Below the pieces are notes generated by a model, which did no database searches, was not told the origin of the DNA, and saw nothing but the letters and a program-made list of their open reading frames with translations. From assembly GCA_049700215.1 (NCBI GenBank), contig JBNAVT010000002.1:41981-105980 (forward strand): a stretch of 64,000 bases of DNA, in the 5' to 3' direction. The number at the start of each line of letters is the position of its first letter. Position 1 is the stretch's first letter. The translations under genes and the position numbers were made by a program. The DNA comes from Thermoproteota archaeon. Lineage in GTDB: Archaea; Thermoproteota; EX4484-205; JAAOZP01. This document shows positions 7,047-63,596 of this stretch, one piece after another.

Positions 7047-7134
7047 CGCTCGGGCTCCATGATACGGGGGAATTCGTGAAACAAGTCGGCATAGTAAACA
7101 GTTGGGCAGGCCGCTACGATTCCTTCCCCCGGAG

Positions 7135-7947: not shown

Positions 7948-8028
7948 TATATGGTTTTTCGAAGCCTTTAAGGATTTACAGGCCTAGCCGGAAGTTTCAT
8001 TCTAACATGATTAGCGTTCTCTCAACTT

Positions 8029-9495: not shown

Positions 9496-10651
9496 TCCTT
9501 CCAGCGTCCGGATTAATCTTCACATTCAACTCTATCCCTTTTTCTAAATAGTATAAATTCGCGTTAAAGTACAGGCTTGTTTGATCAAAGGGATACTCCG
9601 TCATGATCATGTCTACCTCGCACCCGGATTCTATAAGCCTGCCTGTAAGCCTATTGCTGCTCAATATCTGCATGATTCTCCGCCCCAGCTCGCTCGTCGC
9701 ATTAATAATCGAAGCCCTTGCGTATATGCTTGGTGAGACCCAGATGTTTGCCGAGCTATTCTTTAAACATGCTTCGCCCATACTGTAAGTGTATCCCGGA
9801 TCATATGGGTCTTTGGATTCCACTATCGTACCCACTATAAACCCATCACCATACTTATAAATATATACACAGATTCCATCAGTCTTATTACTCTCCTCAA
9901 GGGATATCTGCAATTCTCTGAATGCGTTAGAATCGGATATAATCCTATAGGTTTTATTAAGGATTAGGCTGCATGATGTTTCAACCCCTTCAACCACCAT
10001 TTCTATCTCCACGTTTGAAGTGGTGTCCCATTCTCTTAATATTCCCAATAGTCTAATTCTTTCAATACTGTAAGTGAAACCCTCCTCCTTAAGCCATCTG
10101 ATGAAAGACTGGTTTTCCAGGATCATGGTCACCCTATTCTTAAAGTCTTCAGGCGGGTTCCTCAGCCTTGGGTAGGATAGGTTTAGAACGTTGATCGTTG
10201 CCTCTACCAGCGTGTTGTTTACAGGCAGTTTTACTTGCTCAGGTCTTCTCCTCAACTCCTTTGTGTTAAAAACATGCTCTGTCCCATTAATCATGCTCAA
10301 AATAACCACTTCTTCATGCCACTCGATTCTGAGGGTTCCCCCTATTATTGCAGTCACAAGATTTCCCCTAGCCTCGCTCCATATCCTGTTCCCCATTCTC
10401 CCGGCTATTTCAGAAGGATAATAGATTTTAACGATCAATGTTTCAAACGTGCCTTCTCCAACCGTAATCGGTATCGCCCCCTCTTCCTCAACGCCGGGAA
10501 GCATGTTGAATAGACTTGTACGGTATGTAAGAAGTATTCCTAAGCTTAAGACTATGGGTAGTATTATAATTAAAGCTAGGAGTGCTTGGGTTGACGTTAA
10601 CACTTTTTTGAGCGAAGGCCTCTCCCCCACTTTCCCTATGTTCTCTTTCAA
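9464..10651 (-). CDS. Hypothetical membrane-anchored extracellular protein, probably co-transcribed with GH5
   Basis: 395 aa. N-terminal transmembrane segment LLALIIILPIVLSLGILL and at least 8 N-glycosylation sequons (NGT, NNT, NLS, NQS, NKT, NSS, NAT). Overlaps the GH5 start by 32 nt. TATA gctttataagg ~30 nt upstream on the minus strand. Confidence 0.45.
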   Translation of the reverse strand: MKENIGKVGERPSLKKVLTSTQALLALIIILPIVLSLGILLTYRTSLFNMLPGVEEEGAIPITVGEGTFETLIVKIYYPSEIAGRMGNRIWSEARGNLVTAIIGGTLRIEWHEEVVILSMINGTEHVFNTKELRRRPEQVKLPVNNTLVEATINVLNLSYPRLRNPPEDFKNRVTMILENQSFIRWLKEEGFTYSIERIRLLGILREWDTTSNVEIEMVVEGVETSCSLILNKTYRIISDSNAFRELQISLEESNKTDGICVYIYKYGDGFIVGTIVESKDPYDPGYTYSMGEACLKNSSANIWVSPSIYARASIINATSELGRRIMQILSSNRLTGRLIESGCEVDMIMTEYPFDQTSLYFNANLYYLEKGIELNVKINPDAGRIEKISFIIRE

Positions 10652-10751
10652 AAAGATGGAAAAACCTTATAAAGCTTTTTCCTTAAACTATTTTAAGCCG
10701 CTGCTTGTCTTTTGAATAAAGCATAAGTATTTAGAATGTTTCAAGATAACC

Positions 10752-11174
10752 ATGGGGGCTGGAGGAAAACACGGTAATTTTAAGGTTGCGGTCTACTGCA
10801 CGGTCCGTGACGTGAATGAAATGGCTGATTCAACCTGGCTGGAAAACAGTTTCAAGGTTTTGAGCAGGAGCATTCCTTTAGACAAGGTTTATCTTGAGAC
10901 CTTCGGCAGCGGTGCCTTGGCGGATAGAGGCTTAATGCAGAAGGTTAAGTCTTTTTTCAAAGATAAGGGTGTCGAGGTGTCCGGGGGAATAGCCACCAAT
11001 GGTCCACGCGGCCAATCTCTCTGCTACTCGAAGCCCGGCGACAGAGAAATGCTTGAAAACGTTGTCAAGTATACTGCTGAATTGTTCGATGAGATTATCC
11101 TGGATGACTGGCTCTTCACAAGCTGCAAGTGCGAAGCATGCGCGCGCGCTAAAGCTGGACCGAGTACCGTTTGA
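10752..11174 (+). CDS. Hypothetical protein, possibly the first fragment of a disrupted larger gene
   Basis: 140-aa ORF ending ...CKCEACARAKAGPSTV*. The next two ORFs continue without an intergenic gap in other frames. Confidence 0.35.
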   Translation: MGAGGKHGNFKVAVYCTVRDVNEMADSTWLENSFKVLSRSIPLDKVYLETFGSGALADRGLMQKVKSFFKDKGVEVSGGIATNGPRGQSLCYSKPGDREMLENVVKYTAELFDEIILDDWLFTSCKCEACARAKAGPSTV

Positions 11175-11485
11175 AGACTATGGAGGATGTTGCGCAAAAC
11201 ATCATCTTTAAAACAGCCAAGGAGGTTAACCCCAAGGTTAGGCTGATAATAAAATATCCAAACTGGTATGAGCATTACCAGTTTCTCGGCTACAGTCTCG
11301 ATTTCGAATCAAGAGTCTTCGACATGGTTTACACGGGCACTGAGACGAGAGACTCAGAGTATACTCATCAACACCTTCAGGAGTATCAGAGCTACGCTAT
11401 AATGAGGTTTCTGGAGAACGTTAAGCCGGGTTTCAACGGCGGCGGCTGGATTGATCCTTTTGCCAAGAGGCGCGCGCGCTCTTGA
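11171..11485 (+). CDS. Hypothetical protein, middle fragment of a possible disrupted gene
   Basis: 104 aa, protein-like sequence (...IKYPNWYEHYQFLGYSLDFESRVFDMVYTG...). Frame differs from the flanking ORFs. Confidence 0.3.
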   Translation: MKTMEDVAQNIIFKTAKEVNPKVRLIIKYPNWYEHYQFLGYSLDFESRVFDMVYTGTETRDSEYTHQHLQEYQSYAIMRFLENVKPGFNGGGWIDPFAKRRARS

Positions 11486-12500
11486 CCGTTACGCGGAGCA
11501 GATAAGGCTGACGCTCTTCGCTAAAGCCAGGGAGGTTACGCTCTTCTGCTACAGCGCCCTGCTCGAGTCCTTTAAGCAAGATGGGGCAAGAATTCCTATA
11601 AGCATCCTTGCACCAGTAGTCGGAACCATCTTCGAGGAGATGGATTTTCTTGTCGGGAAACTCGGCAACCCTTGTGGTGTTAAAAGCTATAAGCCGTTCA
11701 ACTCGTCCGGCGAGGATTTTCTTCAAAACTACATAGGCATGCTAGGAATTCCTGTCGAGATGACTCCGAGTTTCCCCGAGGCCAGTGAAACCGTGTTCCT
11801 AACCGAGTGTGCCAAGTTTGACGGCGGGATAATGGGGAAAATCAAGAAGCATCTTGTTAAAGGCGGGGACGTTATTATTACATCCGGTTTTCTGAGGGCG
11901 ATGCAGGATGAAGTGGTTAGAGAGCTGGCTGAGGTCAAATACACCGGTGGAAAAATACTTGTCAAAGACTTCTCACTAGGCTTTTTCCTTTTCGAAGATG
12001 TTTACCACTCGGATGTGGAAATACTTATCCCCCATATCAAATACCCGACTAACGATGTTTGGGAGGTCATTACGTGTTTAAGCAGGGGCAACGGATACCC
12101 GTTGCTGATGCTCATGAACTACGGGAGGGGAACACTATACCTACTTACAATACCGGATAACTTTAACGACCTATACCATCTCCCACCCACTGTTTTGAAC
12201 AGTATTAGAAGAATCTTCTCGAAGAATTTGAAAATAAGCCTTGAAGGACCAAGCAGGGTCTGCATTTTCCTTTACGACAACGATGCTTTAATCCTTCATT
12301 CATTCCTGCCTCATCCCTCTAGAGTCAGCGTTGTGGTTAAGGGCAAGGGTTTAAAGATGCGTGAACTCTCCTCGGGCGAGATACTTAACGGCTTCGAGAG
12401 GAAATGGGGGATGGTTTTGAAAGAAGTATTGAAACCGTGTTCCCGGTTTACTTGGCGTCGTCTTCCTACAGTGCTTTCAGGGTTGAATAATTATCTTTGA
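11451..12500 (+). CDS. Hypothetical protein, C-terminal fragment of a possible disrupted gene
   Basis: 349 aa, in the same frame as 10752..11174. (GC)5 tracts sit at ~11140-11149 and ~11472-11481, near both ORF junctions. Confidence 0.4.
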   Translation: MILLPRGARALDRYAEQIRLTLFAKAREVTLFCYSALLESFKQDGARIPISILAPVVGTIFEEMDFLVGKLGNPCGVKSYKPFNSSGEDFLQNYIGMLGIPVEMTPSFPEASETVFLTECAKFDGGIMGKIKKHLVKGGDVIITSGFLRAMQDEVVRELAEVKYTGGKILVKDFSLGFFLFEDVYHSDVEILIPHIKYPTNDVWEVITCLSRGNGYPLLMLMNYGRGTLYLLTIPDNFNDLYHLPPTVLNSIRRIFSKNLKISLEGPSRVCIFLYDNDALILHSFLPHPSRVSVVVKGKGLKMRELSSGEILNGFERKWGMVLKEVLKPCSRFTWRRLPTVLSGLNNYL

Positions 12501-12536
12501 AAAGTTTAAACCAGTTTAAAACTGGAGTGTTTCAGG

Positions 12537-13139
12537 ATGAACGCGTTTAAGCAGAATGAGCGGTTGGGCAGGGGGGTTAACATACTGGGTTACGACCCGG
12601 TTTGGAAAAACAGGTCTATGGCAAGAATGAGGAGCGAGCATTTTAGGCTGATAGGGAGCGTCGGCTTCAACAGCGTACGCATCGCTCTCCACCCTTTTCG
12701 CGACGGGGCTATGGGTTGGGGAAACCGGCTTTCGGAAGAGTGGCTTGAAACATTGGAATGGGCGGTTGAACAGGCTCTTGGAAACTGGCTTATGCCGATA
12801 ATCGATTTCCACGAGTTTATAATCATGGGGAGGGATCCGTCTGGAAACAGGGATAGGCTTCTCGCCTTCTGGGATCAGATTGGTAGACTCTACAGTAATT
12901 ATCCTGACGGAGTGGTTTTCGAGCTTCTAAACGAGCCCAATAGGGAGCTTACGCCTGAGCTTTGGAACCGTCTTCTCGCCGAGATCCTTAAAACAGTGCG
13001 CAAGACTAACCCGGATAGGACTGTGATAATAGGCCCAGCCGTCTGGAACAGCATAACCGGCCTTGATAAGCTGGTTCTCCCGGAGGAAGACAGGAATATA
13101 ATTGTAGCGCGCACTCACGTTTTGGTCAAACGCCTTTAA
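12537..13139 (+). pseudogene. GH5 endoglucanase N-terminal fragment (truncated paralogue of 8029..9495)
   Basis: 200 aa. Contains FELLNEPNRELTPELW but ends at ...NIIVARTHVLVKRL*, where the intact paralogue continues NIIVTFHFYTPFEF...GEFG. No frame carries the nucleophile region. The divergence point lies on the tagcgcgcac motif at ~13104-13113. Confidence 0.65.
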
Positions 13140-29464: not shown

Positions 29465-32340
29465 ATGTATAGGGATGAGGCGGTGGTTTGGAGTCCCGGG
29501 GATTCTGAGAAAATTGCTGGTTTTCTGAGGCGCGTATCCCCAGGTTTCACCGAGAACGCTCAGGCCAGGGCCTGGGTTGAACCTGACGGCAGGATCCTTC
29601 TTCAAATAGTGTTCATGAAAGAGGGTGTTGCAACCAGGATGCTTGAAACATTTGTCGTTAAGGATGATGGTGGGAACATCGTCAGGGTTGAGCCTCCTGA
29701 GGCGACTGGTGAAGCGGGGGAGAGCCAGCTGGAAGGCGGTTCCCAGAATCCCTGTTTAAAAACCCTTGGGGATCGCCTCAGGGTTCTCAACTGGCATCAT
29801 AGTAATTCTCTGGCTGCTGTTGCTAAGAGGCTGGTGGGCCTCGAGGTTTTTTCCACACTTCCTTCTAAAGAGGTTGACTGGGCGAGCAGTGTTTTCAACC
29901 AGGTTTTCCCCGAGTCCCCTTTAACCCTCAGGCCCTACGGGTATTTTGATAAGGAGACGAGAGAGTACGTTATAACTCGGCCAGACACGCCTACGCCCTG
30001 GATAAACTATCTCGGCCAAGGAGGCTACGGCGGAATAATATCTAACACTGCTGGAGGTTTCTCGTTCGACCGTGACCCCCGTAACCGTCGGGTTACAAGG
30101 TACCGGTACAACGCTATTCCACTGGATCAGCCTGGGCACTATATTTATCTTAGGGATGATGAAACCGGGGAGTTCTGGAGTCCAACTTGGCAGCCTGTTA
30201 AGAACAGCCTTGAATGGTATGAGTGTAGGCATGGCGCAGGCTATACTCGTATAAGCAGCAGGCGTAACGGGGTTGAGGCCTCAATACTCTTCTTCATCCC
30301 ACCTAATCCCCCCTACGGGGAGTGTCCTGTCGAGCTTCATGTGCTACGCTTAAAAAACACTAGCGCCAGCGTTAAGAGCCTGAGCATATGGTCCTACGAG
30401 GAGCTGTCATACTGGGATGCTATCGTTGACACGACTAACCTGGATTGAGGTCAGCAAATAGTTTCAAGCTCCTACAGGAATGGTGTTATTGTCACGGGGG
30501 TTCAGTTTAAACCTACTAGAACGTTCCTCGCAAGCAGCCTCGCCCCAGATGGTTACGACACTAGCCGCGAGGTTTTCGTGGGGAGCTACGGCGACCTCTC
30601 CAGGCCGCAGGCGGTTGTCAGCGGCAAGCCGGGTTACAGTATTGCTTCACGCGGCAACAGTATTGCTTCCCTCAGACATTTTCTGGAGCTGAAGCCCCGG
30701 GAGGAGGAGACAATAGTCTACGTGCTTGGCGTGACTGATAAGCCGAGTCTAATACCTGAAACCGTTGAACACTATAGTGTCGTAGAAAACGTTGAGAAGG
30801 CTTTTAAAGAGCTTGGAGAAAACTGGGGCGAATACCTTGGGAAGCTAACTGTTGAAACACCGGATGAGGAGATGAACGCTATGATAAACTTCTGGAACGC
30901 TGTTCAGTGCTGTGCCAACCTCTACTGGTCTAGATTCGTCTCCCTGTACGATACTGGTTTAGGAAGAGGCATGGGGACGCGTGACTCTGCTCAAGACACT
31001 TTGGGCACTGTGCATAATGATCCTCAGCATGCACGCAGGGTTCTGAAAATGCTCTGGAAACTACAGTTTAAAGATGGGCACACCTGGCACCAGGTTTTCC
31101 CGCTTACTGGCGAGGGGGGGCCTGGGCATGCTGCAGAATCTCCTGAGAAACCCCAGTGGTTTAGCGACGACCACCTTTGGCTCATCTTAGCGACCTGCAG
31201 CTATCTCCGTGAAACGGGTGACTTCACACTCCTGGATGAGAAGCTGCCATACCAGGATAGTGACGCGGAGGAGACTGTTTGGGAACACGTAGAGAGGGCG
31301 GTAGGCTTCACCTGCAGGAAAAGAGGATTACACGGCCTGCCGCTGATCGGCTTCGCAGACTGGGATGACACTATGAATCTTGACCATGGTTCTGAGAAGG
31401 CTGAAAGCGTCTGGACGGGGATGCTTTTCTGCAGGGTTATGCTTGACCTTGCGGAGCTTTGCAAGAAGCTTGGGCGCGTGGAGAAGATGATGGAGTTTGA
31501 AAAGCTTCACAGGGAGATGGCTGAAACAATAAACCGGGTTTCATGGGATGGTGAATGGTATGCTAGGGCTTACGACGACGAGGGCAGGCCTGTCGGCATT
31601 AAGGGTAAGAAGTATCACTGGATAAGTCTTATTCCGCAGGCTTGGTCGGCTATTGCTGAGCTCGGCGAAGAAGAGAGGTCGAGGAAAGCCTTGGAGAGTG
31701 CACGCCGGTTTTTAAACAGCCTTTAGGATTAAGGCTGATGAGAGACCCGTTTAACAGCAGTAAGACGGATGAGGATTCAGTGGATGTTGAGAGCCTGAGG
31801 CGTTTCGGCGGAACAGCAACATACCCGCCTGGGCTCAAGGAGAATGGTGGAATATTCAACCATGCTAACACTTGGGTTATTGTTGCAGCCGCCAAGCTCG
31901 GGCTTGGAGACCTCGCCTACCAGTTTTACAGCCAGATAATGCCGCTTAGACGTAGAGATACGGATGCTCTTAAGACTGAGCCCTACGTGTATTCTCAGAA
32001 TCTGGCTGCCCCGGAGCATCCTGAGTATGGGCGTGCAAGAAACTCGTGGCTCACCGGCACAGCCTCATGGGTTTACGTGGCTGCGACACAATGGATTCTC
32101 GGCATACGCCCCACCTTCGAAGGGTTGAAAATATCTCCATGCATACCGGAATCCTGGAGCGGCTTCAAGGCTCGAAGGGTCTTCAGAGGAGTGACGTACA
32201 ATATTCTCGTTAAACGTGTTGGAAAGGGTAACAAGGTTTCGCTCAAGGTGAATAGTAAGCATGTTCCCGGAGAAGTTGTTCCGCTTCCAATCGAGGATGT
32301 GGCGAGCGTGGAAGTAGAGGTCGCGCTCGGAGGGCAATAG
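29465..32340 (+). pseudogene. GH94 cellobiose/cellodextrin phosphorylase, disrupted by one in-frame TGA (~30446) and one frameshift (~31720)
   Basis: Three ORFs cover the N-terminal domain (RPYGYFDKETREYVITRPDTPTPWINYLG), the catalytic (alpha/alpha)6 region (GRGMGTRDSAQDTLG) and the C-terminal domain (NGGIFNHANTWVI...). ORF1 and ORF2 are in the same frame and separated by TGA (...TTNLD*GQQIV...). ORF2 to ORF3 needs a 1-nt correction near aacagcc/tttagg. Confidence 0.75.
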
Positions 32341-37904: not shown

Positions 37905-39161
37905 ATGAATTCCTCAGAAATATTTGAAGCCGCGTCTAAAAGTAGGCTTTTAAAAGATCCTTACGTGGAAAAAATATGGGCCTTGATGAGTGATAAAAAC
38001 CTTTTCTCAAAGTCTCCAGACTATCTCAGTAAACTCAGGAAGAGTCTTCTCAGAGATGCTTTAGACTATTTTTCGAGACATAGTGATTATTACCGTGAAC
38101 TTTTCGAGAGGCTTGGAATAAGACCCCGGGATGCTGAGCTGGAGGATCTAGCGAAGCTCGCAGTCCCATCGGATGTTCTAAGGGGAGAGGGGCATAAGCA
38201 GTTTCTAATCAAAGACGTGGAGGAGAATGGGGAGTATTTCATGTCAAGCGGCACGACTAATCCTAATCCTGTAAAGGTTTACAGGAGTCCTCTCGACCTT
38301 GCGATCATGATACTGGGCAATACCTATCTTTTCGAATACGTTTACGGGAAGGAGGTTGAAAGAGAGAGGGGAATCGCGCTTTTCATGGCTGCCCCAGAGC
38401 TTAGGCACAGGCTTAACTTTGTGGCTTTCGTGCATCTCACTCTAGAGTCAAAGAAGATTCCTCTTCTCTACGGCATGAACCTGGTTGAGGGGACTACGGA
38501 GGGGAAGCCTTGGCAGAAGCTTGTCCCCAACCAGGAGAATGTCCTTCGTTTCCTGAGAAGCAGGGAGGAGCCTAAACTCCTTTTCACCGCGCCCGCCGGC
38601 GTCTATTTGCTGTCTAAAAAGTTTAAGGATATGAACATTGTTCATAGGCTCGCATACAGGCTGCTGAAAATCATGCCGATAAACCTTGGAAGAGGAGGCG
38701 TCATCGTAACAGGCGGTGGCACAAAGGGCTTTGACCTGCCGCCTTACGATAAGACCGTTGAATTCTCCAGAAAATATTTTGTTTCACGCGACCAGGATGG
38801 AGGTGCTCAGGAGGTTCCCTTCATGGATGTTTACGGGATGACTGAGACATTAACCGCTATGCTGGATAGGTTTGGTGAAATGGATAAGATACCGCACCCG
38901 CTTTCCGAAGTTTTCATACTAAACCCTAAAACCTTCGAGTTAGCCAAGGAGGAGGATGCGGAGGGTATTGTTGGAGTATTTAATCCTTTCACAACATCTT
39001 GGCTTGAAATATTTTATCCCGGGGACATTATGCGTAGCCATCCCTCAAACAGGTATTATGGGAAGGAGTACGTGTTCGTCAGGAGGCTGAGTGTCGACGA
39101 GGGCTGGAGTCTTCAGCGAGCGTGCGGCGGAACCCTGGAGGAGCTAATGGGCAGAGGCTAG
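37905..39161 (+). CDS. LuxE-like acyl-protein synthetase (adenylate-forming, PaaK/LuxE superfamily)
   Basis: 418 aa. FMSSGTTNPNPVKVYRS is the SSGTTG-type adenylation motif of LuxE/PaaK enzymes. A Cys 10 residues from the C-terminus (...QRACGGTLEELMGRG) matches the position of the LuxE acylation cysteine. Directly followed by a LuxC-like gene. Confidence 0.6.
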   Translation: MNSSEIFEAASKSRLLKDPYVEKIWALMSDKNLFSKSPDYLSKLRKSLLRDALDYFSRHSDYYRELFERLGIRPRDAELEDLAKLAVPSDVLRGEGHKQFLIKDVEENGEYFMSSGTTNPNPVKVYRSPLDLAIMILGNTYLFEYVYGKEVERERGIALFMAAPELRHRLNFVAFVHLTLESKKIPLLYGMNLVEGTTEGKPWQKLVPNQENVLRFLRSREEPKLLFTAPAGVYLLSKKFKDMNIVHRLAYRLLKIMPINLGRGGVIVTGGGTKGFDLPPYDKTVEFSRKYFVSRDQDGGAQEVPFMDVYGMTETLTAMLDRFGEMDKIPHPLSEVFILNPKTFELAKEEDAEGIVGVFNPFTTSWLEIFYPGDIMRSHPSNRYYGKEYVFVRRLSVDEGWSLQRACGGTLEELMGRG

Positions 39162-40625
39162 TTGGACACTATGCTTGAGCTTAAACCGTTCTGCAGCCAC
39201 AGGCATACTGCCGTGGAAAAAACACAGAGCCATTACAGGATCCTAGAGGTTAGCAGAGAAAGCCTGCGGGAGATCATCAATAGGTCTTCAGAGGTTCAGG
39301 GAAGGCTTTCAAGCCTAGGGGTTCGGGAACGGCTTGGAGTAATAGAGGAGATGGGTAAAATATGGAGGGAGAAGCTTAGCGATGGCAGGCTTGAAAACCT
39401 GAAGAAGATTCTTGCTAGAACAACAGGGTATGGTGAAAAGCTGATAGAAATGGAGTTTTCACTGATCCCGATGGTTTTAAGCGGCGAAAACATCCGTGAA
39501 AATTTGGAATACTCCCCTGCCAGGGACATCCGGGTGTTTGAAAGATTCGTCGAGATGAAGAATGGTGAGAGCTTTAGAATCGCCCCCGCAGGGCCTGTAC
39601 TCATCATAAGCTCAGGCAACTCGCTCCTTCCAGCGATTATTCCTTCAACCATATCCCTTGCAACTGGAAACCTCACTATTGTAAAACCCTCTCTTTCAAA
39701 CTACCTAGGGGTTGTTGAAGTATTTGGTACACTCTGGGAAATAGCCTTAAACTCCGAGGCGGCGAGGACCATGATGGACACGCTTGTCATAAGCTACTTT
39801 ACGCATGACAGTCCTTCGCTGAGATACCTCCTTGGTGAAGCAGAACTCGGCGTGGTAAACTTTTGGGGTGGTGAGCCTGCTAGAACCAGTGTTCTGAGAA
39901 TGGTTTCGGAAAACCCGAATCACCCTAAGATCCTTGTAAACGGGCCCTTGACGGGGTGTGCTATCGTAGATGAAAAGTCTGCTGACGAGAAAACGGCTGA
40001 AGGCTTAGCGAGAAACATGGTACTTTACGATCAACAGTTGTGCAGCTCCCCAACTTCTGGGGTTTTCATCGGCTCCTGGCAGAACGCCCTCTCCTTCACC
40101 CGTATGGTTGAAAGATTCTTGGACGAGATTGGATCGGAATTCGAGTCTGATTTCGACGATACAAGCATTTTTCTCACACAGTCCGCTAGAAGGATCTTCC
40201 AGTTGAAGGGATCTCACGTTCTTTCCTCAAAAAACCCTAAGAATTTTTGGACGCTAGTGGTCTCAAGGGGGAAAAGCCTTCTGGACGAGGTGGTCAACTC
40301 ACTCCCCGCCTTTAACATCTATACTCGTAGAAGATTCTTGGAGATGGTTGTTGTAGAATCTATAGACGAGGCGCTGGAACACGTCAGTAAGGTTCCTGGT
40401 TCACCTGCTTTCAAAGGAGTAGACGGTGTCCAAACCATAGGGTATTCTGTAAACTGGGATGAAAAGATTTTTGAAAAACTGGTTTCCCTCGGGGTATTCA
40501 GGATCGTGCCTTTAAGCGACATGTTTATGAGAAGCCCCATCGAGCCCTACGATGGCGTCGCATTGTTCTCCGCCTTCACCAAAATAGTTTACCGTAGGGA
40601 TTTAGCGCTATCCTTAAAACCATGA
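39162..40625 (+). CDS. LuxC-like acyl-CoA/acyl-protein reductase
   Basis: 487 aa, similar in length to LuxC. PVLIISSGNSLLPAIIPSTISLATGNLTIVKPS matches the LuxC H/I-I-SGN-P core, and MVLYDQQLCSSPTSG gives Cys ~294 in CSSP context like the LuxC catalytic Cys. Confidence 0.65.
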   Translation: MDTMLELKPFCSHRHTAVEKTQSHYRILEVSRESLREIINRSSEVQGRLSSLGVRERLGVIEEMGKIWREKLSDGRLENLKKILARTTGYGEKLIEMEFSLIPMVLSGENIRENLEYSPARDIRVFERFVEMKNGESFRIAPAGPVLIISSGNSLLPAIIPSTISLATGNLTIVKPSLSNYLGVVEVFGTLWEIALNSEAARTMMDTLVISYFTHDSPSLRYLLGEAELGVVNFWGGEPARTSVLRMVSENPNHPKILVNGPLTGCAIVDEKSADEKTAEGLARNMVLYDQQLCSSPTSGVFIGSWQNALSFTRMVERFLDEIGSEFESDFDDTSIFLTQSARRIFQLKGSHVLSSKNPKNFWTLVVSRGKSLLDEVVNSLPAFNIYTRRRFLEMVVVESIDEALEHVSKVPGSPAFKGVDGVQTIGYSVNWDEKIFEKLVSLGVFRIVPLSDMFMRSPIEPYDGVALFSAFTKIVYRRDLALSLKP

Positions 40626-41641: not shown

Positions 41642-42388
41642 ATGGTTAGAGCAATAAAATTTATCTTAAGCCGGGCTGAACCCCTTGCAAACACGATGAA
41701 GATCAGGGTGCTCCTTGGAACTATCGACAGCTCACTCGTTTATTCGGATGCGGTTGTTGCCATAGATGTTTTACGCTCATCTACAACCATATTGACAGCC
41801 TTGGCGAATGGCGCTAAGAGTGTTATACCGGCTGCGTCTGTGGACGAGGCTCTAACTGTTGGAGGCAGGCTTCAAGCAGTTGTTGGCGGGGAGGTAAACA
41901 GTGTTAAGCCCCCTATGTTTCACCTAGGAAACTCTCCACTGGAATATGTTCGAAGGAGAATAGGTGGGAAAACAGTTGTACTCTACACCTCCAGCGGAAC
42001 AAGGCTCCTAAGGTTTCTAATGGCTGTTTCGGAAAAAGTCTTCGTTGGGGCGGTTGTCAACGTTTCTAAACTTGTGGAGCACATTGTGGAAGAAGGTTTC
42101 GGCAACGTGGCGATCGTCACGGCGGGTAAAACCGGCTCACCCGCTCTTGAAGACTCTTATTGCGCAGGCCTCCTCGTTAAAAGTCTTCCTTGGAACGAGT
42201 GCGATAGGAATGCTGAGGTCGTGATGAAGATCGCTGAGCTCAAAATAGATGTTGTGAAGAGGTCGATTCACGCTTTGGAGCTTGTTAAACTCGGCTTGGA
42301 GAAAGACGTGGAGTATTCCCTAACTCCTGACCGCGTCAGTATAGTGGCTGCCGCTGATCCTTTCAAGGGATGTATCCAGCTCCCTTGA
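41642..42388 (+). CDS. 2-phosphosulfolactate phosphatase (ComB) family protein
   Basis: VVAIDVLRSSTTILTALANGAKSVIPA is the ComB family core. The true start is probably the internal ATG giving MKIRVLLGT.... Last gene of the luxE-like operon. Confidence 0.7.
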   Translation: MVRAIKFILSRAEPLANTMKIRVLLGTIDSSLVYSDAVVAIDVLRSSTTILTALANGAKSVIPAASVDEALTVGGRLQAVVGGEVNSVKPPMFHLGNSPLEYVRRRIGGKTVVLYTSSGTRLLRFLMAVSEKVFVGAVVNVSKLVEHIVEEGFGNVAIVTAGKTGSPALEDSYCAGLLVKSLPWNECDRNAEVVMKIAELKIDVVKRSIHALELVKLGLEKDVEYSLTPDRVSIVAAADPFKGCIQLP

Positions 42389-55613: not shown

Positions 55614-55781
55614 TTATTTTTCTTTAGAAACTATGCCTTGAACAGCACCGCATTGTTTGCAGAAAACAATCGTCAGAAGCTTGTCGCTCAAAGGGTATTC
55701 GATGAAGGTGAATGAAGCTATGTCGGCTCCACACTTGAAGCAAACAGGCTTATTCTTAACAGTCCTGTCTTCCATACTCAT
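55614..55781 (-). CDS. Small C4 zinc-ribbon protein (55 aa), not in ORF track
   Basis: [55 protein letters not shown] carries two CxxC pairs. A GGAGGTGA Shine-Dalgarno-like motif lies 6-8 nt before the ATG and an A/T-rich box further upstream. Confidence 0.5.
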
Positions 55782-55857
55782 CCTGCGCCATCACCTCCGT
55801 CTATTTTTATTATGAACAGTTCGCTTTTAGACTGCTGATACTGTTCATCCCCGTTGA

Positions 55858-56008
55858 ACTTCGGATTCAGGCTGATTGCCCTGGCTATCGCCACCCTTTG
55901 TCTCTGTCCGCCTGACAATTGGTGCGCATACTTATTCATAAAGTACTCTGGGGGAGTTAATGCAACCAGGTGCAGAAGCTCAACCACCTTACTCCTTATT
56001 TCGCTCTC
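55858..56008 (-). pseudogene. Isolated ABC-transporter ATPase fragment (signature-motif region only)
   Basis: Within ORF 55778..56056: [44 protein letters not shown] is the ABC signature (LSGGQ) region. There is no Walker A upstream or Walker B/H-loop downstream in any frame. Confidence 0.5.
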
Positions 56009-56113: not shown

Positions 56114-57589
56114 TTACCCAGATAAATTCTTAACCGCCTTTCTTTCTATCTCTGAAAGCTGTTCAATAACCTGCTTGTCAATAACTGGCTCCGGAGGATA
56201 ATTCTCCCTAATAATCCTGTTTAAGGCATCCTGGGCTTTCTTAAGCAGGTCTCTGCAACCTTTCTTCTCCCAGCCTATCCAATCATCCCTGTTGAAGAGG
56301 TTCGGATACCAGAGTTCCCCACGCATTTTCCTCAAGGTGTGTTGCTCCCCTAGGAAGCTTCCGCCTACTCCGACTCTTTTAATCACTTCAAGCGCTAAAG
56401 TCTCCTTGTTTACTTCAAACCCTTTAAGAATACGGTTGACATAGCTGAGCCACTCGTTGTCGATTATAAGCTGCTCGAGGCTCGCTCCCTGGTCTGCTCC
56501 AACTATCCCCTGTTGACCTATGCCCTCCGCCCCCGCCGCCAAAACCAGAGCAGTGCTCACCGCCTTCTCAAAGCCTGCTTGAAAGTCTGGAATGTTTGAA
56601 TCAGTCAGAGCCACGTTTGCGAAGCAGCTTAACCCGAGTTCTCTAGCCACTTGTATCCCTGCCAGGGATGCTAGCGTGTTTTCAGGCGCTCCGAAGGAGC
56701 ATAGGGCAGTCCTCTGGTCTAACACGTGTATCGACGTTGAGAAGCCGATGGGAGAATCAGGGTTGAGAAGATTGACCAGCACTATGCCCGCCAGGACCTC
56801 GGCTGCATGCAGGCTCAACGCGCCAGCCAGTGTTACTGGGGCAGTGCCTCCCAGGAGGCTCATAGAGCCTGACGCGCTTATGGGAAGCCCATACTTAGCC
56901 ATCTCCATAAGAATCTCTATAGCGTGGTGTGAAAGCTGAAGCGGGCTCGTAGGCTCCGCCCCATAGCCGATAATCTTCTTCCTTAGCTCATCCTCTCCCC
57001 CGGCAACAGCCTTAGCCATATCCAGAATATGCCTGCAGGATTCGATGGAGTATATCCAGGCGTAAAACGGTTTACGCGAATACGTGAAGAGAAGCCTATG
57101 CTCCCTCACGTCCGCTATCCTCACAGGCACGTCGCTGGGCACGACGAAGGGGGATACAACACTCACGTTTTCAAGCTCGTTGCCGACTGTTATCGATTTT
57201 ACACAATCCTCAGTCCTCCCTGGTCGGCGTTCCATCCTACTGTAATCCACGAGTTGAATCTCCAATCCCATGGTGGCCTTTATGCTTCCGTCTCCGAAGT
57301 AGACAGCGTCACCCTGGGGAGGCTCAACAATATACTGCTTAGGAGCTTTTTTAAGACAGTCTAGAATAAGCTCTCTGGGAAGCTTAGCCACCTCGCTCCT
57401 GTAATCGATAATCGCCCCATGCTCCTTAAGCATCTCTAGAGCGCCCCTATGCCTGTATGCAAAACCAACTTCTTCCAGTATTTCCAGCGCGCCCTCCTTT
57501 ACTGCTTCAACCCCTTCTCTGGGAAGCAGCTCAAGCCTCTTGTTGAAAACCGGCCTCATTCTCAACCACCCGGATACATAACCATCCAT
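56114..57589 (-). CDS. MttB-superfamily methyltransferase (trimethylamine / quaternary-amine:corrinoid methyltransferase family, non-pyrrolysine member)
   Basis: 491 aa. Segments TLAGALSLHAAEVLAGIVLVNLL, LEQLIIDNEWL, KETLALEVIKRVGVGGSFLG align with the MttB TIM-barrel core. No in-frame TAG. Confidence 0.8.
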   Translation of the reverse strand: MDGYVSGWLRMRPVFNKRLELLPREGVEAVKEGALEILEEVGFAYRHRGALEMLKEHGAIIDYRSEVAKLPRELILDCLKKAPKQYIVEPPQGDAVYFGDGSIKATMGLEIQLVDYSRMERRPGRTEDCVKSITVGNELENVSVVSPFVVPSDVPVRIADVREHRLLFTYSRKPFYAWIYSIESCRHILDMAKAVAGGEDELRKKIIGYGAEPTSPLQLSHHAIEILMEMAKYGLPISASGSMSLLGGTAPVTLAGALSLHAAEVLAGIVLVNLLNPDSPIGFSTSIHVLDQRTALCSFGAPENTLASLAGIQVARELGLSCFANVALTDSNIPDFQAGFEKAVSTALVLAAGAEGIGQQGIVGADQGASLEQLIIDNEWLSYVNRILKGFEVNKETLALEVIKRVGVGGSFLGEQHTLRKMRGELWYPNLFNRDDWIGWEKKGCRDLLKKAQDALNRIIRENYPPEPVIDKQVIEQLSEIERKAVKNLSG

Positions 57590-57639
57590 ACTTATATGCT
57601 TTCTTCATCCCTTTAAACTCGGCATCAAAAGTCAGCGTG

Positions 57640-58820
57640 CTAAACATATTTTTCAGCAGCAGAGGAGGCTATCCTCGCCCACTCCCATAGGCGTTGAGGC
57701 TGGTACCTAACGGTGCTAATGTCCTTCATATGGATCTCCATCACGCAGTTAAACCTCCTCGCCTTCCCAAGCTTCTCCTCCATGTCTCTGCGCACTTCCT
57801 CCGGGTTCCAACTCGACTCAGCCAGCACAGCGGGATTAGGCTTCCAAGCGAATATGAACTCGTCACCCACGTTTTCAACAGCCTTGTCGAATCTATGAAG
57901 GGGCTCATAGAGATCCTGCGCAGCCTGGGTATGTTCCTCCTCAAAACGTCAACCTTATGGTGGAGAGGCTCGCAGCACCCATAGTAGTTCAACCCCCATT
58001 TCTCATACCAATGTTTCTCATGCTTCAACGCAAACTCCTCATGCATAGCAGGAGATACTGCTGAAAAAGCCTGTGCCGCTCCAACCCCCCAAAGCCTCGT
58101 GGGAGAGTCGCGCAGCAATCCGAGTTTCTCATACTGGTCCAGCCGGTGGAGCCAAGCGTCAACCATCCTCTCGGCAAGCCTATGCACATACCCTGGCCTA
58201 CGATGCATATCTATAAGGATCTCCCTAACCCCGGTCAGCATAACGATCTCATCCCAGGGGGCGAACCAGAAGGCGCTGACCCCACGCTTCTCAACAGGCA
58301 GAACCCCGTCGAAAACCTCGCAAAGCATCTCGAAATCCTCCTCAGCCCTTTCTTCGTCGAAAAACACTCTCGGCATCCGGATCTTCTCAACGTCTTCTTC
58401 AGACTTGATTTGAGCATGGTAACGGTGGGAAACTACAGGATTCTTCTCATCAGTCTTAACAATATCCTCCTTAACACGGATGCCTATGTCAGTGTCAGCA
58501 ACATAGTCCTGAAGCGGCTGCTCCACCACAGGCTCCAAACCTAGGCTGCTGCTGAAACGGGGATCATCCACCAGCACCCCCAGTCCATGCCTCCACTTAT
58601 AGATCAAGCGTCTAAGCCTCTCCTCGTATCTCCTGCATAACGGATGCCTAGTCCTCAGCGTTAGCTCATTGTTAACATTCATCTCGTGCCACGGGATCTC
58701 GTAAACATAGACCGGAGGCTTCACCATCTCCAGGTTGATCACCCTTTTTTGCAGCTCAAAATACTCCTCGTTAACGGGTGAGGCTGCGATTTCAGCGCGC
58801 GCTATTCCGCTGCAAACCAT
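57640..58820 (-). pseudogene. Uroporphyrinogen-decarboxylase-family protein (MtaA/MtbA-like methylcobamide methyltransferase type), frameshifted
   Basis: ORF 57741..58820 loses family similarity after ...YYGCCEPLHHKVDVL. The -1 frame continues FEEEHTQAAQDLYEPLHRFDKAVENVGDEFIFAWKPNP... (ORF 57640..57870) to a family-typical C-terminus. One T is missing in a T4 run at ~57925. Confidence 0.65.
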
Positions 58821-59379
58821 CTATCGTCTACAGCCTCCTCTTCTAAGCCCACACCTCCGCTGGAAAAGACTTTAAAAAACATTACTGGGAAAGTCATACA
58901 ATGAGACCCGGTTTTTCAAGCACCGTATGTTCTGGAAACGGACAGGTGTGTTTCTTAATATATTTCACTTCGTAGATGGCGCGGGGGAGGTGGTAGTACG
59001 CGCGCTAATGCATAGTATCCGTGCTAATAGCTATGGCTTTCTCGCCACCTGAGGAAACGTAGAGGCTTCTAGCATATAAAGGGTCATGCACACCTTTAAA
59101 AAAGGTGTGGCGCGCTAAAACGACCAACTATTTCTACAATCATCTCGAGCATCAACCAGTCTCAGGCTGGAGATACGACGTGACTGATCAAGGCATCGGA
59201 AGTTAAAAAAAGGAAAATGATTTGAAACTCAATGAAAGAAACCGAATGATAAGCATTCGTGCCTACAGCATTCTTCACTAAACAAGCTTGATTTATGCAG
59301 ATAGCGAGTCTAGAAGTGACACGGTTAGAATTAGAGTTCAGCCAGCATAGAGGTGAGAATAAGAGCTACCTTATTCTTC

Positions 59380-59900
59380 TAACAGCCTCCTTGATTATCG
59401 GGTCCTCAATCCAGTAGTAGCCCTCCTTCTCCTCCACTATCATCGCGGAGGAAAGAGTTTCCAAGACTATTTAGCGCGCGCGAGGGGTGAAGCAGGGCTC
59501 GGCTCTAAGAACCTGCGCAGGATTCCAACGTATGATCCTGAGAAAACTATCCTTATACCTCTGTATTCATCCCAAACACTTTTCAAAACTTTTAAAAAAT
59601 AATGTGAATACACTTCTTGCATCTCGTCTAAAGCAATAACCCTATCCTTGACGCGTGAAAAAAACGTCTTCCAAGACTCTAGTCCACTTCCTGTACAAAC
59701 TTCAAGTCTAGGCCGATCTCTCCGAGCTTAAACCCGGATTCAGCCGCCAACTTCCTAACCACGTCCTCAATACTCCTAGCACCCATCAGATTTACGTAAA
59801 ACCCATTGTTCTCATTGGAGAAAGTTTTAAGCGGGCTCGTCTTACCCGTCATCCTCTTCCCGACGACAGCAACCCATAAGCGCGCGCTCTAAAAATAAGA
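59380..59900 (-). pseudogene. Remnants of a second Arch_ATPase (PF01637-type) gene
   Basis: Minus-strand fragments: ...VAVVGKRMTGKTSPLKTFSNENNGFYVNLMGARSIEDVVRKLAAESGF (Walker A region, ~59690-59880) and ...EGYYWIEDPIIKEAVRRI (~59380-59450, compare ALYRIADPYMAFWFRYV in the intact paralogue). No continuous ORF. Confidence 0.4.
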
Positions 59901-60048
59901 CGCTTACCAAAGTCACACCTGCTCCTGGAAACATTAGGTGTATTCACTCCAACCAGCCACATAACCAGATAGTGAACTCATACGCAAAGGGTCTTTCTGC
60001 TGGTTAACCGCACCAGTACCAAAAAAGTTTACGCGGGCTAGATGCAAG

Positions 60049-61455
60049 CTATTTTTTCTCCAAAATGTCTTTAAGTTCAAGGATGATGTAGCCTTTCTTA
60101 GAAAGCTCTTCCTTACCCTCGATTTTTCTGGCAACTAAGCCGAAGTACTCTCTCCGCCTCGATTTCCTCCACTTAAAGTTTTGAGCCTTCTGTTTTAATG
60201 CTTGAATTATTCCTTCAGCCTTAACCCCCTTCAGGCTGCTCCACTTTACTTCAAAGAAGGCTGATGAAGACTGGGCCTCGTCCAAAGCTACAGCATCTAT
60301 TTCCTGATCTTTAAACCACCACTTCCCCACGATCTTCGGACGGAATGGAATCTTCTTGAGGCTGTAGAGGCTTTCTCTAAAAATCTGTTCGTAAACCATC
60401 CCGAGATAAGCATCATAGTCCCGCTTAACCTTCTCCAAAACCGGGTCAACATTTCCAAGCTCGAGCTCCGATTTATTCGGGAAAACGTAGCGGAACCAGA
60501 AAGCCATATAGGGGTCAGCTATACGGTAGAGGGCTTTCCGCGGCTTAATTCTCTCTCCAACAGGGTAGAGGCGTTCAACCCATCCTAATTCCTCCAGCAC
60601 GTCAAGATACTTCGAAAGAAGAGTTTTTTCAAGGCCGGTGAAGCCAGCTATCTCGCCGAAGGAGGAAGCTCCGAATGCTACAGCCTTAAGTATTGCCGAG
60701 TATAGCCTTGGCTCACGAAGCTCCTCCCTAAGCAAGAACTCTGCCTCACCGTAAAGGAACTCGCCTTTTCTGAATATTCGGGTAGCCACATTATCCCAGA
60801 ACGGGATATTCGGGTCAAACTTAAGGAGGTATGCTGGAACCCCGCCCAGACACCCGTAAACCCTGACAAGATCCTCCTCAGAATATTCTTTGAAGAACTC
60901 TCGGAGACAATTAAAGCGTAGGGGCTGAAGCTTCCATTGCCCAGTCCTCCTACCGTAAAGCGGGCTCCTGTAGCTTAAGACCTCAGTCTCCATCATGCTG
61001 ACGGAGGAGCCGAGGAGGATTAGCACGACATGACTGTTTTTAAGCTCGAGATCCCATATTTTCTGGAAAACAGAAGGTATCGCCTTATTATCCTCTATCA
61101 GCATCGGAAACTCATCTATCACGATAATAACCTTCCCACCCTTCCACCATTTCAGAAACTCTTTGAAGAGCTCCAGCCAGTTTCTAACTTCAAGCTTCGA
61201 GAAGGATTCGTCGCGAAGAGCCTGCGACATCTTCTCCTTAAACTCCTCAAGCAGGTCTCTCTCCGGCCTCCTGTCCGCCAGGAAGTATACAGCGGGCTTC
61301 CCCCTGATGAACCTCGCAACAAGCTCCGTCTTCCCGATTCTCCTACGCCCGTAAATAACCAGGAGCTCAGGATTCGTGCTTCTAAACTTCTCCTCCAAGT
61401 ATTGTAGCTCATCCTCCCTATCGACAAATAGTTGAATCACGAGTATTATACTCAT
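60049..61455 (-). CDS. Archaeal ATPase (Arch_ATPase AAA+ domain with DUF234 C-terminal domain)
   Basis: 468 aa. FVDREDELQYLEE...LLVIYGRRRIGKTELV (Walker A), VIIVIDEF (Walker B), C-terminal YRIADPYMAFWFRYV DUF234 motif. TATA atttaaatag upstream. Confidence 0.8.
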   Translation of the reverse strand: MSIILVIQLFVDREDELQYLEEKFRSTNPELLVIYGRRRIGKTELVARFIRGKPAVYFLADRRPERDLLEEFKEKMSQALRDESFSKLEVRNWLELFKEFLKWWKGGKVIIVIDEFPMLIEDNKAIPSVFQKIWDLELKNSHVVLILLGSSVSMMETEVLSYRSPLYGRRTGQWKLQPLRFNCLREFFKEYSEEDLVRVYGCLGGVPAYLLKFDPNIPFWDNVATRIFRKGEFLYGEAEFLLREELREPRLYSAILKAVAFGASSFGEIAGFTGLEKTLLSKYLDVLEELGWVERLYPVGERIKPRKALYRIADPYMAFWFRYVFPNKSELELGNVDPVLEKVKRDYDAYLGMVYEQIFRESLYSLKKIPFRPKIVGKWWFKDQEIDAVALDEAQSSSAFFEVKWSSLKGVKAEGIIQALKQKAQNFKWRKSRRREYFGLVARKIEGKEELSKKGYIILELKDILEKK

Positions 61456-61896
61456 GGTTCAACAACTATTTAAATCTGCCTCCTCCCTTATTAAGCGGCG
61501 TATGCCAGCCGAGAAAATTAAAGCTCCTCCACCATCGTCACAAGGAAAGGCTTCAATAAGAGTTTAGCGGACTGTATCCTGCGGGCTTAATAAAGCAGCA
61601 TACGGTATAGCCGATTTAGCCAATTCTATGCAAACCCTGACCCTCCTACCGTTGTTTCTCACCTGCTTGCCGAGCCAGTTGACTATCGAGCTGAGCGGCA
61701 GGTATTTGGCTTCCCAGCAGCCTTTTCTAAGCAGCTTGCTCACCACGTCAGCCTTGATCTCGCGCGCGCCTACCGTCTCTATTCACCCATAGATGCCCGA
61801 GGAACTCTACATAGAAAGGAATACGAGTCGATCCTGCTCAAATGCTTCGGAAGCTCCCCCAAGCTCAGAATAATAGACTTCCTATTCGACAACCCG

Positions 61897-62142
61897 TTGT
61901 TTGACTTCACTAAGAAGGAGATTATAGAAGCACTAGGCATGAGCAAGCAAACATTCTACAAGCATTTTACAGGCATAGAGAAAAACGGTCTAGTCAAAGT
62001 CTCAAGAAGAATAGGCAGGGCTAAACTCTGCAGGATAAACCTGGAGAACCTAATGGTCAAAATGCTAAGAGAAAGCGAAACACAGCTCTCCCTGCAAACA
62101 GCAGAGCAGGAAGCTGAAAAGAAACAAATAGAGGTAAAATAG
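61897..62142 (+). CDS. Small winged-helix DNA-binding protein
   Basis: 81 aa. FTKKEIIEALGMSKQTFYKHFTGIEKNGLVKV gives an HTH and wing. Flanked by (CG)4 tracts at ~61763 and ~62143. Confidence 0.45.
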   Translation: MFDFTKKEIIEALGMSKQTFYKHFTGIEKNGLVKVSRRIGRAKLCRINLENLMVKMLRESETQLSLQTAEQEAEKKQIEVK

Positions 62143-62189
62143 TTTTCGCGCGCGAGAGGAATCTATGCATATTCAAGACCCTATGAGAA

Positions 62190-62561
62190 TCATATTTCTA
62201 CAAGCCCGTCGATAAACCTCAAATACCATCCTACAAACTCCCTCTGAGTCGCCACGTGTATTTCAACTGGTACGGACGGCCCCATCCTTTGCAGGATCCT
62301 CGCCTTTAAACTTGCTGCTCCCTCCTTTACTGCTTCATTAGACACTATGAGAACATCTATATCGCTTGAAGCCGTGTACCTTCCACTCACCACTGATCCG
62401 AAAACGTAGACCTTCGCATCCTTATAATCCTCCTTTACGATATCCTTAACGGAAGCAGCAACCTCCCTATATTTCTCGAGGTACTCTAACGTTTCCCTCC
62501 CCAGCTTCACATATTGCTCAAACATTCCTAATAACCTTCTCGAACTTGTCAGCGAACTCAA
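62190..62561 (-). CDS. Minimal nucleotidyltransferase (MNT) of a HEPN-MNT toxin-antitoxin pair
   Basis: 123 aa. VYVFGSVVSGRYTASSDIDVLIV is the GS...SDxD NTase motif. Confidence 0.8.
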   Translation of the reverse strand: MSSLTSSRRLLGMFEQYVKLGRETLEYLEKYREVAASVKDIVKEDYKDAKVYVFGSVVSGRYTASSDIDVLIVSNEAVKEGAASLKARILQRMGPSVPVEIHVATQREFVGWYLRFIDGLVEI

Positions 62562-62901
62562 TTAGCTGTTTAACCTCCTTCTCCTCATACCTCCTCGGGA
62601 AGTATCTGGAAATTACATAAGCATCCTCAACCTTAGTGAGAATCATTATCTCCGAATCGATTAGCGACGCTAGACCCCTCCCAGACGCAGCATCATCAAG
62701 CACCCTTAACAATCTCACTATCGAGTGTGTCCGGGGATACGTTCCAGTTTTTACGAGAAGCTTGTATTTCAGAATAAGTTGAAAGAATTGCTCGACACTG
62801 AACGCTGCAAGGTCAAATTCTCTCTCCTCAAAAAGCCTCTTAGCATTCCTCAGGAAGGCATACGCTCTTTCCCTGAGAACCTCAGCCTCTTCGAATGACA
62901 A
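62518..62901 (-). CDS. HEPN-domain protein (partner of MNT)
   Basis: 127 aa, helical. R-x-x-H-type motif (YPRTHS). Overlaps the MNT gene by ~44 nt in the classic HEPN-upstream arrangement. Confidence 0.7.
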   Translation of the reverse strand: MSFEEAEVLRERAYAFLRNAKRLFEEREFDLAAFSVEQFFQLILKYKLLVKTGTYPRTHSIVRLLRVLDDAASGRGLASLIDSEIMILTKVEDAYVISRYFPRRYEEKEVKQLIEFADKFEKVIRNV

Positions 62902-63596
62902 TACGTACGCTTTTCAAGAAGCTTAATATTTAAGTCTTAATAGAGGCTTAGAGCCTTTGCAGCGACTATTTCAATATCATTCCCAGTCAACTCGTTACCG
63001 CGAGAATACCACAGCGAAACACCCACTTGAAACCACGAATCATCCCGCTTGCAGAAGCCTTAACATCCCCGGTCAGACGTACACGTCCCTTCCCTCCTCA
63101 CGTGAGCATCACTGGGCTCAACCGTGCCGTCAACCCAATCCGTATGGCTCCACCCCAACCAGCCTGGACACCGAAAACAGGCGTGCCACGCTTATAGCGA
63201 GAATAACAAGATGCCTCCCGGGATTTTTCTCAATTCTGCTTTATAACCCTTGTCAACATTCAGGTTTTTACAAGGAAACACAGGCTAAGGTGCTAGGGCC
63301 TCAATTTTCTACATGCTTCCCTGCATATGGGATCAAGGAATTCGTAATCCTTCACGATGCTCATCATTTCAAGCGCGCGCTACAAGTCGTTTCGAGACGA
63401 CTTCCCAATGTCGAAAAGCAAGTTCCGGTTCGGAACTATTAAGCTTACGGCAACCATCACCAAGCAACTTATCCCCACCCGTCCTCATCCATCACCACCC
63501 GCCCAATTTGAAACACCAAGACCCATCCCGGAAAACCCCTGAAGAACACTGGCTCCAAAACCTTAAATACACCATCAGCCTAACGCCCAGCGAAAG

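Follow-up and report, generated by a model that had tools for sequence, protein, structure and literature searches.

We analyzed a 64,000-nucleotide stretch of a Thermoproteota archaeon genome (GenBank assembly GCA_049700215.1, contig JBNAVT010000002.1, positions 41,981 to 105,980 of the forward strand; hereafter the window, whose own coordinates are used below) around a gene of the MttB superfamily of methyltransferases and the uroporphyrinogen decarboxylase (UroD)-like gene directly upstream of it. In this locus, the MttB-family gene is the sole intact member of a module. The upstream gene, from a cryptic family with a predicted UroD fold, is a pseudogene, and the transporter genes found downstream in relatives have been deleted. 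We lean, by a small margin over even odds, toward a degraded pair of a first (MT1, MttB-family) and a second methyltransferase (MT2, UroD-fold), which would act together with a corrinoid protein encoded elsewhere on a non-acidic methylated compound imported by the linked transporter.

An intact MttB-family gene beside a disrupted UroD-like gene

The two genes and the lesions of the upstream one lie as follows. Related loci and proteins are given by our own labels (L and P numbers).

56114..57589 (-): MttB-superfamily gene, non-pyrrolysine, intact; 491-aa open reading frame (ORF) with a likely start at Met11 (57559), giving 481 aa
57640..58797 (-): pseudogene of the cryptic UroD-fold family, 5' end cut off; 88% identity to P0001 and 86% to P0002
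57890..57891 (-): frameshift site of the pseudogene, a 1-nt deletion (TTT in relatives, TT here), from DNA alignment with L002 and three-frame translation
58795..58802 (no strand): GCGCGCGC tract at the junction of the replaced 5' end

An earlier reading of the bare DNA letters (the sequence-only reading) had described the first gene as a full-length, TAG-free member of the MttB superfamily. The 491-aa ORF indeed contains zero internal stops and zero internal TAG codons, and it matched PF06253 (MttB superfamily, COG5598) with an E value of 6.8e-77 (259 bits) along almost the full profile (positions 30 to 494 of 500). The NCBI gene call MGB9717087.1 is an exact match to the 481-aa product from Met11. 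A sequence search of the PDB returned solved relatives with E values of 2e-54 to 3e-37, of which M. barkeri MttB (7xcl) was the top match at 2e-54, and the MtgB structure was found at 2e-45. The protein is 96% identical to P0121. The ratio of non-synonymous to synonymous substitution (dN/dS) against the relative locus L002 is 0.12, and at 115 conserved columns the protein shows three deviations, all of them conservative. The housekeeping neighbors of the gene group with proteins named Candidatus Brockarchaeota, making the host a Brockarchaeota-like Thermoproteota metagenome-assembled genome (MAG), in agreement with the non-methanogen-like context proposed before.

The same reading had placed a UroD-family gene at 57640..58820 (-). 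A gene is present there, 50-80 bp upstream of the MttB gene on the same strand, but it is split into two ORFs of 359 aa and 76 aa, compared with 406-416 aa for intact homologs, and its homology to relatives stops at 58797. The homopolymer frameshift predicted at about 57925 is likewise real but misplaced, since the lost T lies 35 nt away, at 57890/57891 (relative GATTTCGAC, window GATTCGAC). Beyond the second lesion, at 58797, which that reading had overlooked, unrelated DNA stands in place of the promoter and the first ~31 codons. The reconstructed protein additionally carries a G to D (G134D-like) and an R to H (R293H-like) change at sites that are at least 95% conserved among homologs. Inactivation is recent, because dN/dS of the UroD-like gene against L002 is still 0.14, next to the value of the MttB gene. 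Programmed frameshifting was considered and rejected, as the ORF is uninterrupted in all relatives.

Decay of the surrounding locus

Decay of the locus was judged against the 91% identical locus L002. Relative to L002, a deletion of 5.5 kb has removed the genes for an SBP_bac_5 binding protein and two permeases, a 71-aa ORF, one complete ATPase gene and half of a second one, and a deletion of 1.65 kb has removed the remainder of that second ATPase gene together with a mechanosensitive channel. Through these two events an Opp/Dpp-type ATP-binding cassette (ABC) importer and the mechanosensitive channel were lost. Downstream of the MttB gene, the following features remain.

55855..56003 (-): what is left (149 bp) of the lost Opp/Dpp-type importer's second ATPase gene, a PF00005 fragment
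55614..55781 (-): 55-aa CxxC..CxxC ORF, conserved downstream of the module, matching 53-55-aa ORFs in L002 and L014
54765..55530 (-): creatininase-family pseudogene, PF02633 on the 3' part, compared with the intact gene of L002

The remnant shows 90.6% identity to L002 15240-15388, inside the ABC_tran/oligo_HPY gene. The creatininase-family gene is inactivated by a TGG to TGA change at codon 4, where L002 has TGG, and by a frameshift after IPYG. Elsewhere, the creatininase gene is fragmentary in L014 and intact and linked to MttB in L002 and L010. With the two lesions and two substitutions of the UroD-like gene, the two deletions and the inactivated creatininase gene, the suggestion that the module is decaying is well supported. 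The CDC48, MTAP and DUF460 genes near the module are full length.

The Pfam content of the window comprises GH5, GH18, a broken GH94, SBP_bac_5 ABC systems, GFO/IDH/MocA and housekeeping genes. In the GH94 phosphorylase gene (29465-32340, +), an in-frame TGA at 30446 and a frameshift near 31726 leave three separate ORFs. It is a second glycan gene of this MAG that is in decay. Recoding of TGA in the GH94 and creatininase genes was rejected: TGA terminates 14 of 32 intact genes, the relative has TGG at the creatininase site, and since TGA is a normal stop in this genome, the in-frame TGAs are real lesions.

Upstream of the module, the window differs from L001, the locus of the closest relative, by an insertion of 4.75 kb (58797-63551) in place of 165 bp. 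The insertion contains fragments of ATPase_2 genes at 59380-59900, followed by an ATPase_2/DUF234 gene that is intact (60049-61455) and by a nucleotidyltransferase/HEPN pair at 62190-62901. GCGCGCGC tracts occur at nine sites in the window (11140, 11470, 13210, 19457, 58795, 59474, 59880, 61762 and 63373) against 0.57 expected. They are mostly A...T-flanked, and zero to two were counted in each related locus checked (8-21 kb each). One of them sits exactly at the junction where the UroD-like gene is truncated. An origin of these (CG)n tracts in a miniature inverted-repeat transposable element or other repeat was unsupported, as the sites share nothing beyond 16 nt.

The upstream gene belongs to a separate family of the UroD superfamily

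Against PF01208 (URO-D), the UroD-like gene scored 13.8 bits, below the cutoff of 23.9, and the NCBIfam models, including those of MtaA, CmuA and HemE, gave zero matches. Searches of the PDB with the protein sequence and with the family profile returned nothing meaningful, and the fold was recognized only through structure prediction. The AlphaFold2 (AF2) model of the intact homolog P0002 has a pLDDT of 90.1, and a Foldseek search with it returned HemE for all of the best 21 PDB matches. Judged by this model, the product is a UroD-type (beta/alpha)8 barrel of the UroD structural superfamily. A profile comparison of the family with the canonical URO-D neighbors of MttB genes gave a probability of 95.8% (E 8e-9), and weak partial URO-D matches were seen in 21 of 40 sampled members. 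The family has more than 5,400 members, mostly named 'hypothetical', from Bathyarchaeia, Thermoproteota, Planctomycetota and others.

The upstream gene had been thought to resemble MtaA/MtbA, the methylcobamide:coenzyme M methyltransferases of the UroD superfamily. This did not hold: in addition to the missing MtaA/CmuA matches, identity to these proteins is 11%, the His-x-Cys motif is replaced by Asn-x-Tyr, an invariant Cys-Cys follows that strand, and the host lacks methanogenesis. Nor is the gene a recognizable HemE (PF01208/TIGR01464), to which it is 12-16% identical. In an hhalign comparison with E. coli HemE, the probability was 3% and only a weak central stretch was aligned. By motif it is neither HemE nor MtaA and forms a separate family within the superfamily. 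Heme synthesis in archaea is known to proceed via siroheme and to do without HemE. The UroD superfamily includes HemE, MetE and O-, S- and halogen-demethylating corrinoid methyltransferases (PMC10418091). As a separate observation, the window encodes a ComB-like 2-phosphosulfolactate phosphatase (41642-42388, +; PF04029, E 6e-53); its family takes part in coenzyme M biosynthesis, and the host is a non-methanogen.

Active-site substitutions point to a different substrate

In trimethylamine (TMA) methyltransferase, pyrrolysine 334 and Tyr364 are central to TMA activation (PMC9842639). The window protein has Leu and Gly at these positions. The glycine betaine-binding residues of MtgB are Y97, R312, H348 and F356, of which Arg312 forms a salt bridge, Y97 and F356 provide cation-pi contacts and H348 also takes part (PMC13080624). 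They are replaced by L, F, G and D, respectively. Most relatives share the latter two substitutions, with Gly at the H348 position in 78 and Asp at the F356 position in 77 of 89 aligned sequences. Arg is absent at the R312 position in the subclade as well, which mostly has Gly there. R312 is conserved in all characterized members, whose substrates are acidic quaternary amines (PMC13080624). At MttB position 112 the subclade has Gln or Glu, and Met249 and Asp336 of the active-site region are kept in 72 and 80 of 84 sequences.

Because of these substitutions, the product is, as far as sequence can tell, neither a TMA enzyme nor a known betaine, carnitine or phosphocholine enzyme. The pocket appears more polar and acidic, which would suit a non-acidic, possibly cationic or hydroxyl-rich substrate.

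The pair is conserved, and related MttB genes lie in sugar-utilization loci

A spacing of 70-90 bp separates the MttB gene from the cryptic UroD-like gene upstream of it, on the same strand, in L002-L005, L014/L015 and the genomes of five GTDB species (L017-L020, L022); in L002 the intact pair occupies 6912-9682. DRTY-6.80 and GD2_1, two Brockarchaeota MAGs published before, are among these. In the more distant archaeal MttB loci L010, L013 and L016, the gene found 1.7-7.5 kb from MttB is either a canonical PF01208 gene or the cryptic one. For the canonical URO-D neighbors of L013 and L016, PDB sequence search alone gave no HemE or MtaA assignment. A further gene pair of the window (37905-40625, +; L011 4048-6767) encodes a 418-aa protein without Pfam match and, after it, a LuxC-type acyl-CoA reductase. 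Relatives carry this pair a few kb from a paralogous, 75% identical MttB, which is absent from the window.

To place the pair in a wider frame, we drew the 80 nearest relatives of MttB (30-89% identity) from species-representative genomes and clustered their neighbors within 6 kb. A UroD-family gene was the commonest neighbor (37/80 loci). Counts per family were as follows.

PF01208 URO-D: 32/80 loci
GH4: 31/80 loci
Sugar ABC permease: 24/80 loci
ROK: 22/80 loci
NagB-like deaminase: 18/80 loci
580-aa protein, likely binding protein: 16/80 loci
GFO/IDH/MocA: 9/80 loci
BadF/BadG-type kinase: 8/80 loci
Cryptic UroD-like family: 5/80 loci

In 21 of the 80 loci the UroD-family gene is directly adjacent to MttB, 17 times directly upstream (12 canonical PF01208 genes and five of the cryptic family) and four times directly downstream. 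The order GH4, binding protein, permease, permease, UROD, MttB recurs in Oscillospiraceae, Anaerolineae, Bacteroidales and spirochaetes. The canonical partners score better with MtaA/CmuA than with hemE models (77 vs 33 bits and 137 vs 75 bits), and many of them contain the HxCG motif. A bacterial operon of this type, consisting of GH4 (alpha-galactosidase-like), the 580-aa protein, two ABC permeases, an MtaA-like UROD and an MttB-like gene, lies at about 4-11.4 kb in each of L038, L050, L056, L061, L062 and L084; we found no paper describing it.

A second survey started from the cryptic family and covered 80 metagenome loci, many of them short. The commonest neighbors were canonical URO-D (19 loci), alpha-L-fucosidase (15) and sulfatase (7).

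Absence of a corrinoid gene from the window

The sequence-only reading had noted no corrinoid protein within 10 kb. This extends to the whole window: a Pfam scan of 37 ORFs found no B12-binding domain, a six-frame search with a hidden Markov model built from two Pfam-confirmed corrinoid proteins found nothing (best E 0.81), and the DxHxxG..SxL..GG motif was not found. The view that this arrangement is unconventional does not hold for this branch, as a missing adjacent corrinoid gene is the rule in the subclade and has been reported for E. limosum (PMC8604678) and Brockarchaeota (PMC8065059).

The only one of the 80 loci with a corrinoid gene is L048 from Parabacteroides sp. PH5-46. There (9971-13049), ROK and NagB genes are followed by an MttB-like gene, a corrinoid protein (PF02607+PF02310) and an MtaA-like UROD with HxCG...GCD. 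For the cryptic family, L146 (445-4341) has the order URO-D, corrinoid protein, cryptic UroD-like gene, and in L119 (2094-4993) a member of the family adjoins a bona fide corrinoid protein. In the relative DRTY-6.80, a 215-aa corrinoid protein is encoded beside mtaB on a scaffold other than that of MttB (PMC8065059, Suppl. Data 9). By analogy, the MAG studied here may supply a corrinoid protein in trans.

Relation to known systems

De Anda et al. (2021) described MttB and MtaB in hot-spring Brockarchaeota, with corrinoid genes co-localizing with mtaB, and reported that the second methyltransferase MtaA is missing, proposing an undescribed protein as replacement (PMC8065059). The 482-aa MttB of DRTY-6.80 listed in their Suppl. 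Data 9 lies on a scaffold syntenic with the window (L015/L017). The window protein is an orthologue, 88-89% identical to the DRTY-6.80 and GD2_1 proteins, and the order UroD-like, MttB, ..., LSM, DUF460, MTAP, CDC48 is common to these loci and the window. That study calls MttB a TMA enzyme, and the UroD-fold gene, which evades Pfam and COG annotation, is undiscussed there. Unlike in these relatives, the UroD-fold gene of the window is a pseudogene and the genes downstream are deleted. The window instance is thus a decaying orthologue of something already reported.

The MtgB, MtpB, MtcB, MtyB and MthB proteins, which function with MtqC/MtqA in D. hafniense and E. limosum, share with the window protein the superfamily, the TIM barrel, the lack of pyrrolysine and a Leu as in MtgB. 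Their MT1 genes, too, can lie apart from those of the corrinoid protein and MT2, as is the case for MttB-family genes of E. limosum (PMC8604678). They differ in the betaine-binding residues listed above, in their partner, which is the pterin-binding MtqA/MtgA instead of a UroD-fold protein, and in their context, which is acetogenesis instead of glycan utilization. In the split MtgBCD system of Ruegeria pomeroyi, the corrinoid module is shared and encoded elsewhere (PMC12478193), so that again an MttB-family MT1 is separated from its corrinoid module. Unlike the window case, this is an aerobic glycine-betaine system, and the Ruegeria-type proteins (L092-L096) have the signature A, A, M, E, L.

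A full-text literature search turned up no publication that connects MttB to UroD-family genes, GH4 or amino-sugar loci. MttB without a neighboring corrinoid gene is already known. We found no description of the cryptic UroD-fold partner or of the general embedding of this MttB subclade in sugar-utilization loci with UroD-family partners.

Proposed mechanism and alternatives

In the model that we slightly favor, the two genes would be the remainder of a conserved hot-spring Brockarchaeota operon, in whose intact form a cryptic UroD-fold gene precedes the non-pyrrolysine MttB-family gene and to which some lineages add an Opp/Dpp-type ABC importer, a mechanosensitive channel and a creatininase-family gene after MttB. 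The MttB-family protein would serve as MT1 and transfer a methyl group from an imported non-acidic compound (not TMA and not betaine, probably glycan- or amine-derived) to Co(I) in a corrinoid protein whose gene lies elsewhere. The UroD-fold protein would then act as MT2 and hand the methyl group on to an acceptor. In the present genome this system would be on its way to being lost, with MttB either working with other partners or recently orphaned. A methyl-transfer role of the UroD-fold partner is plausible from its gene neighborhood, namely L048, L146 and the recurrent UROD to MttB order, and the wider pairing pattern likewise derives from gene neighborhood only.

Several observations weigh against this model. 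A corrinoid protein within 10 kb of the MttB relative is absent in 79 of the 80 loci, and given this number the corrinoid dependence of the subclade is an assumption. The zinc motif HxCG (His-x-Cys-Gly) of the canonical neighbors aligns to Asn-x-Tyr-Gly in the cryptic family, in an alignment that stops short of the C-terminal Cys position, and the invariant Cys-Cys, Cys305/Cys306, stands directly after Asn-x-Tyr-Gly. The family matches no MtaA or HemE model. In its 80 surveyed loci, MttB was nearby in only two and a corrinoid protein in only two, and L001, the locus of the closest homolog, has the UroD-like gene without MttB.

The scarcity of corrinoid genes would also follow if the MttB subclade and its UroD-fold partners were TIM-barrel enzymes of a cobalamin-independent sugar or amino-sugar catabolism. 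The frequent GH4, sugar ABC permease, ROK, NagB-like and GFO/IDH/MocA neighbors fit such a role, as does the exchange of the Arg and of the aromatic residues that hold the quaternary amine for a more polar pocket with Gln or Glu at 112 and Asp at F356. We nonetheless consider this unlikely: the corrinoid protein stands between MttB and the MtaA-like gene in L048, and L146 offers the same picture for the cryptic family; Met249 and Asp336 are largely kept; and all characterized superfamily members are corrinoid-dependent (PMC8604678, PMC13080624). Somewhat less probable still is an incidental adjacency. The UroD-like gene would then come from a glycan-related family and have a function of its own, and MttB would be an orphan MT1 that had at no time relied on this gene. 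The cryptic family is mostly found in contexts without MttB, as in L001, the MttB paralogue P0127 stands alone, and purifying selection on MttB persists beside a dead neighbor. On the other hand, the tight same-strand spacing is kept in at least six species-level genomes, and UroD-family partners accompany MttB across unrelated phyla.

It is improbable that the lesions are sequencing or assembly artifacts and that the module is intact in the organism. In favor of artifacts are the MAG source of the sequence, a frameshift of just one base within a short run of T, and a 5' junction at a (CG)n tract, where an assembler could go wrong. However, a substitution-type nonsense codon lies nearby and GH94 has its own in-frame TGA, the two deletions are clean and keep the 149-bp remnant, the changes at conserved UroD-like sites are non-conservative, and the CDC48, MTAP and DUF460 genes are complete. 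Very improbable is a genuine trimethylamine:corrinoid methyltransferase for TMA methylotrophy. The closest solved structure is M. barkeri MttB, and the orthologue was annotated in this way (PMC8065059). The TAG-encoded residue is a Leu here and Tyr364 a Gly, however, and with TIGR02369, the trimethylamine methyltransferase equivalog model, the gene scored 344 bits, below the cutoff of 525.

Returning to the methyltransferase pair, a broader version can be put forward tentatively, and we rate it as clearly less probable than the pair itself. The Gly/Asp MttB subclade together with a UroD-fold partner (MtaA-like in bacteria, the cryptic family in Brockarchaeota) might form a widespread, undescribed anaerobic demethylation system for methylated sugars, amino sugars or other glycan-derived, non-acidic methylated compounds. 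Its genes would lie within GH4/NagB/ROK/ABC loci, in Firmicutes and Bacteroidota of the gut as well as in Anaerolineae, spirochaetes and Brockarchaeota. The cryptic family could then be the 'missing' MT2 of Brockarchaeota and a new corrinoid methyltransferase family linked to fucosidase and sulfatase loci.

Implications

We know of no route for sugar demethylation in anaerobes; the described systems are aerobic P450 only. This gap would be closed if the pair proved to be a demethylase linked to the uptake of glycans. A large MttB branch would then also gain a function; its members are routinely labeled 'trimethylamine methyltransferase' in error, which inflates estimates of TMA and methylotrophic potential in metagenomes. 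The Brockarchaeota methylotrophy model would likewise receive the second methyltransferase that it lacks. The window itself, with its decaying copy, teaches that the presence of mttB is no proof of a working pathway.

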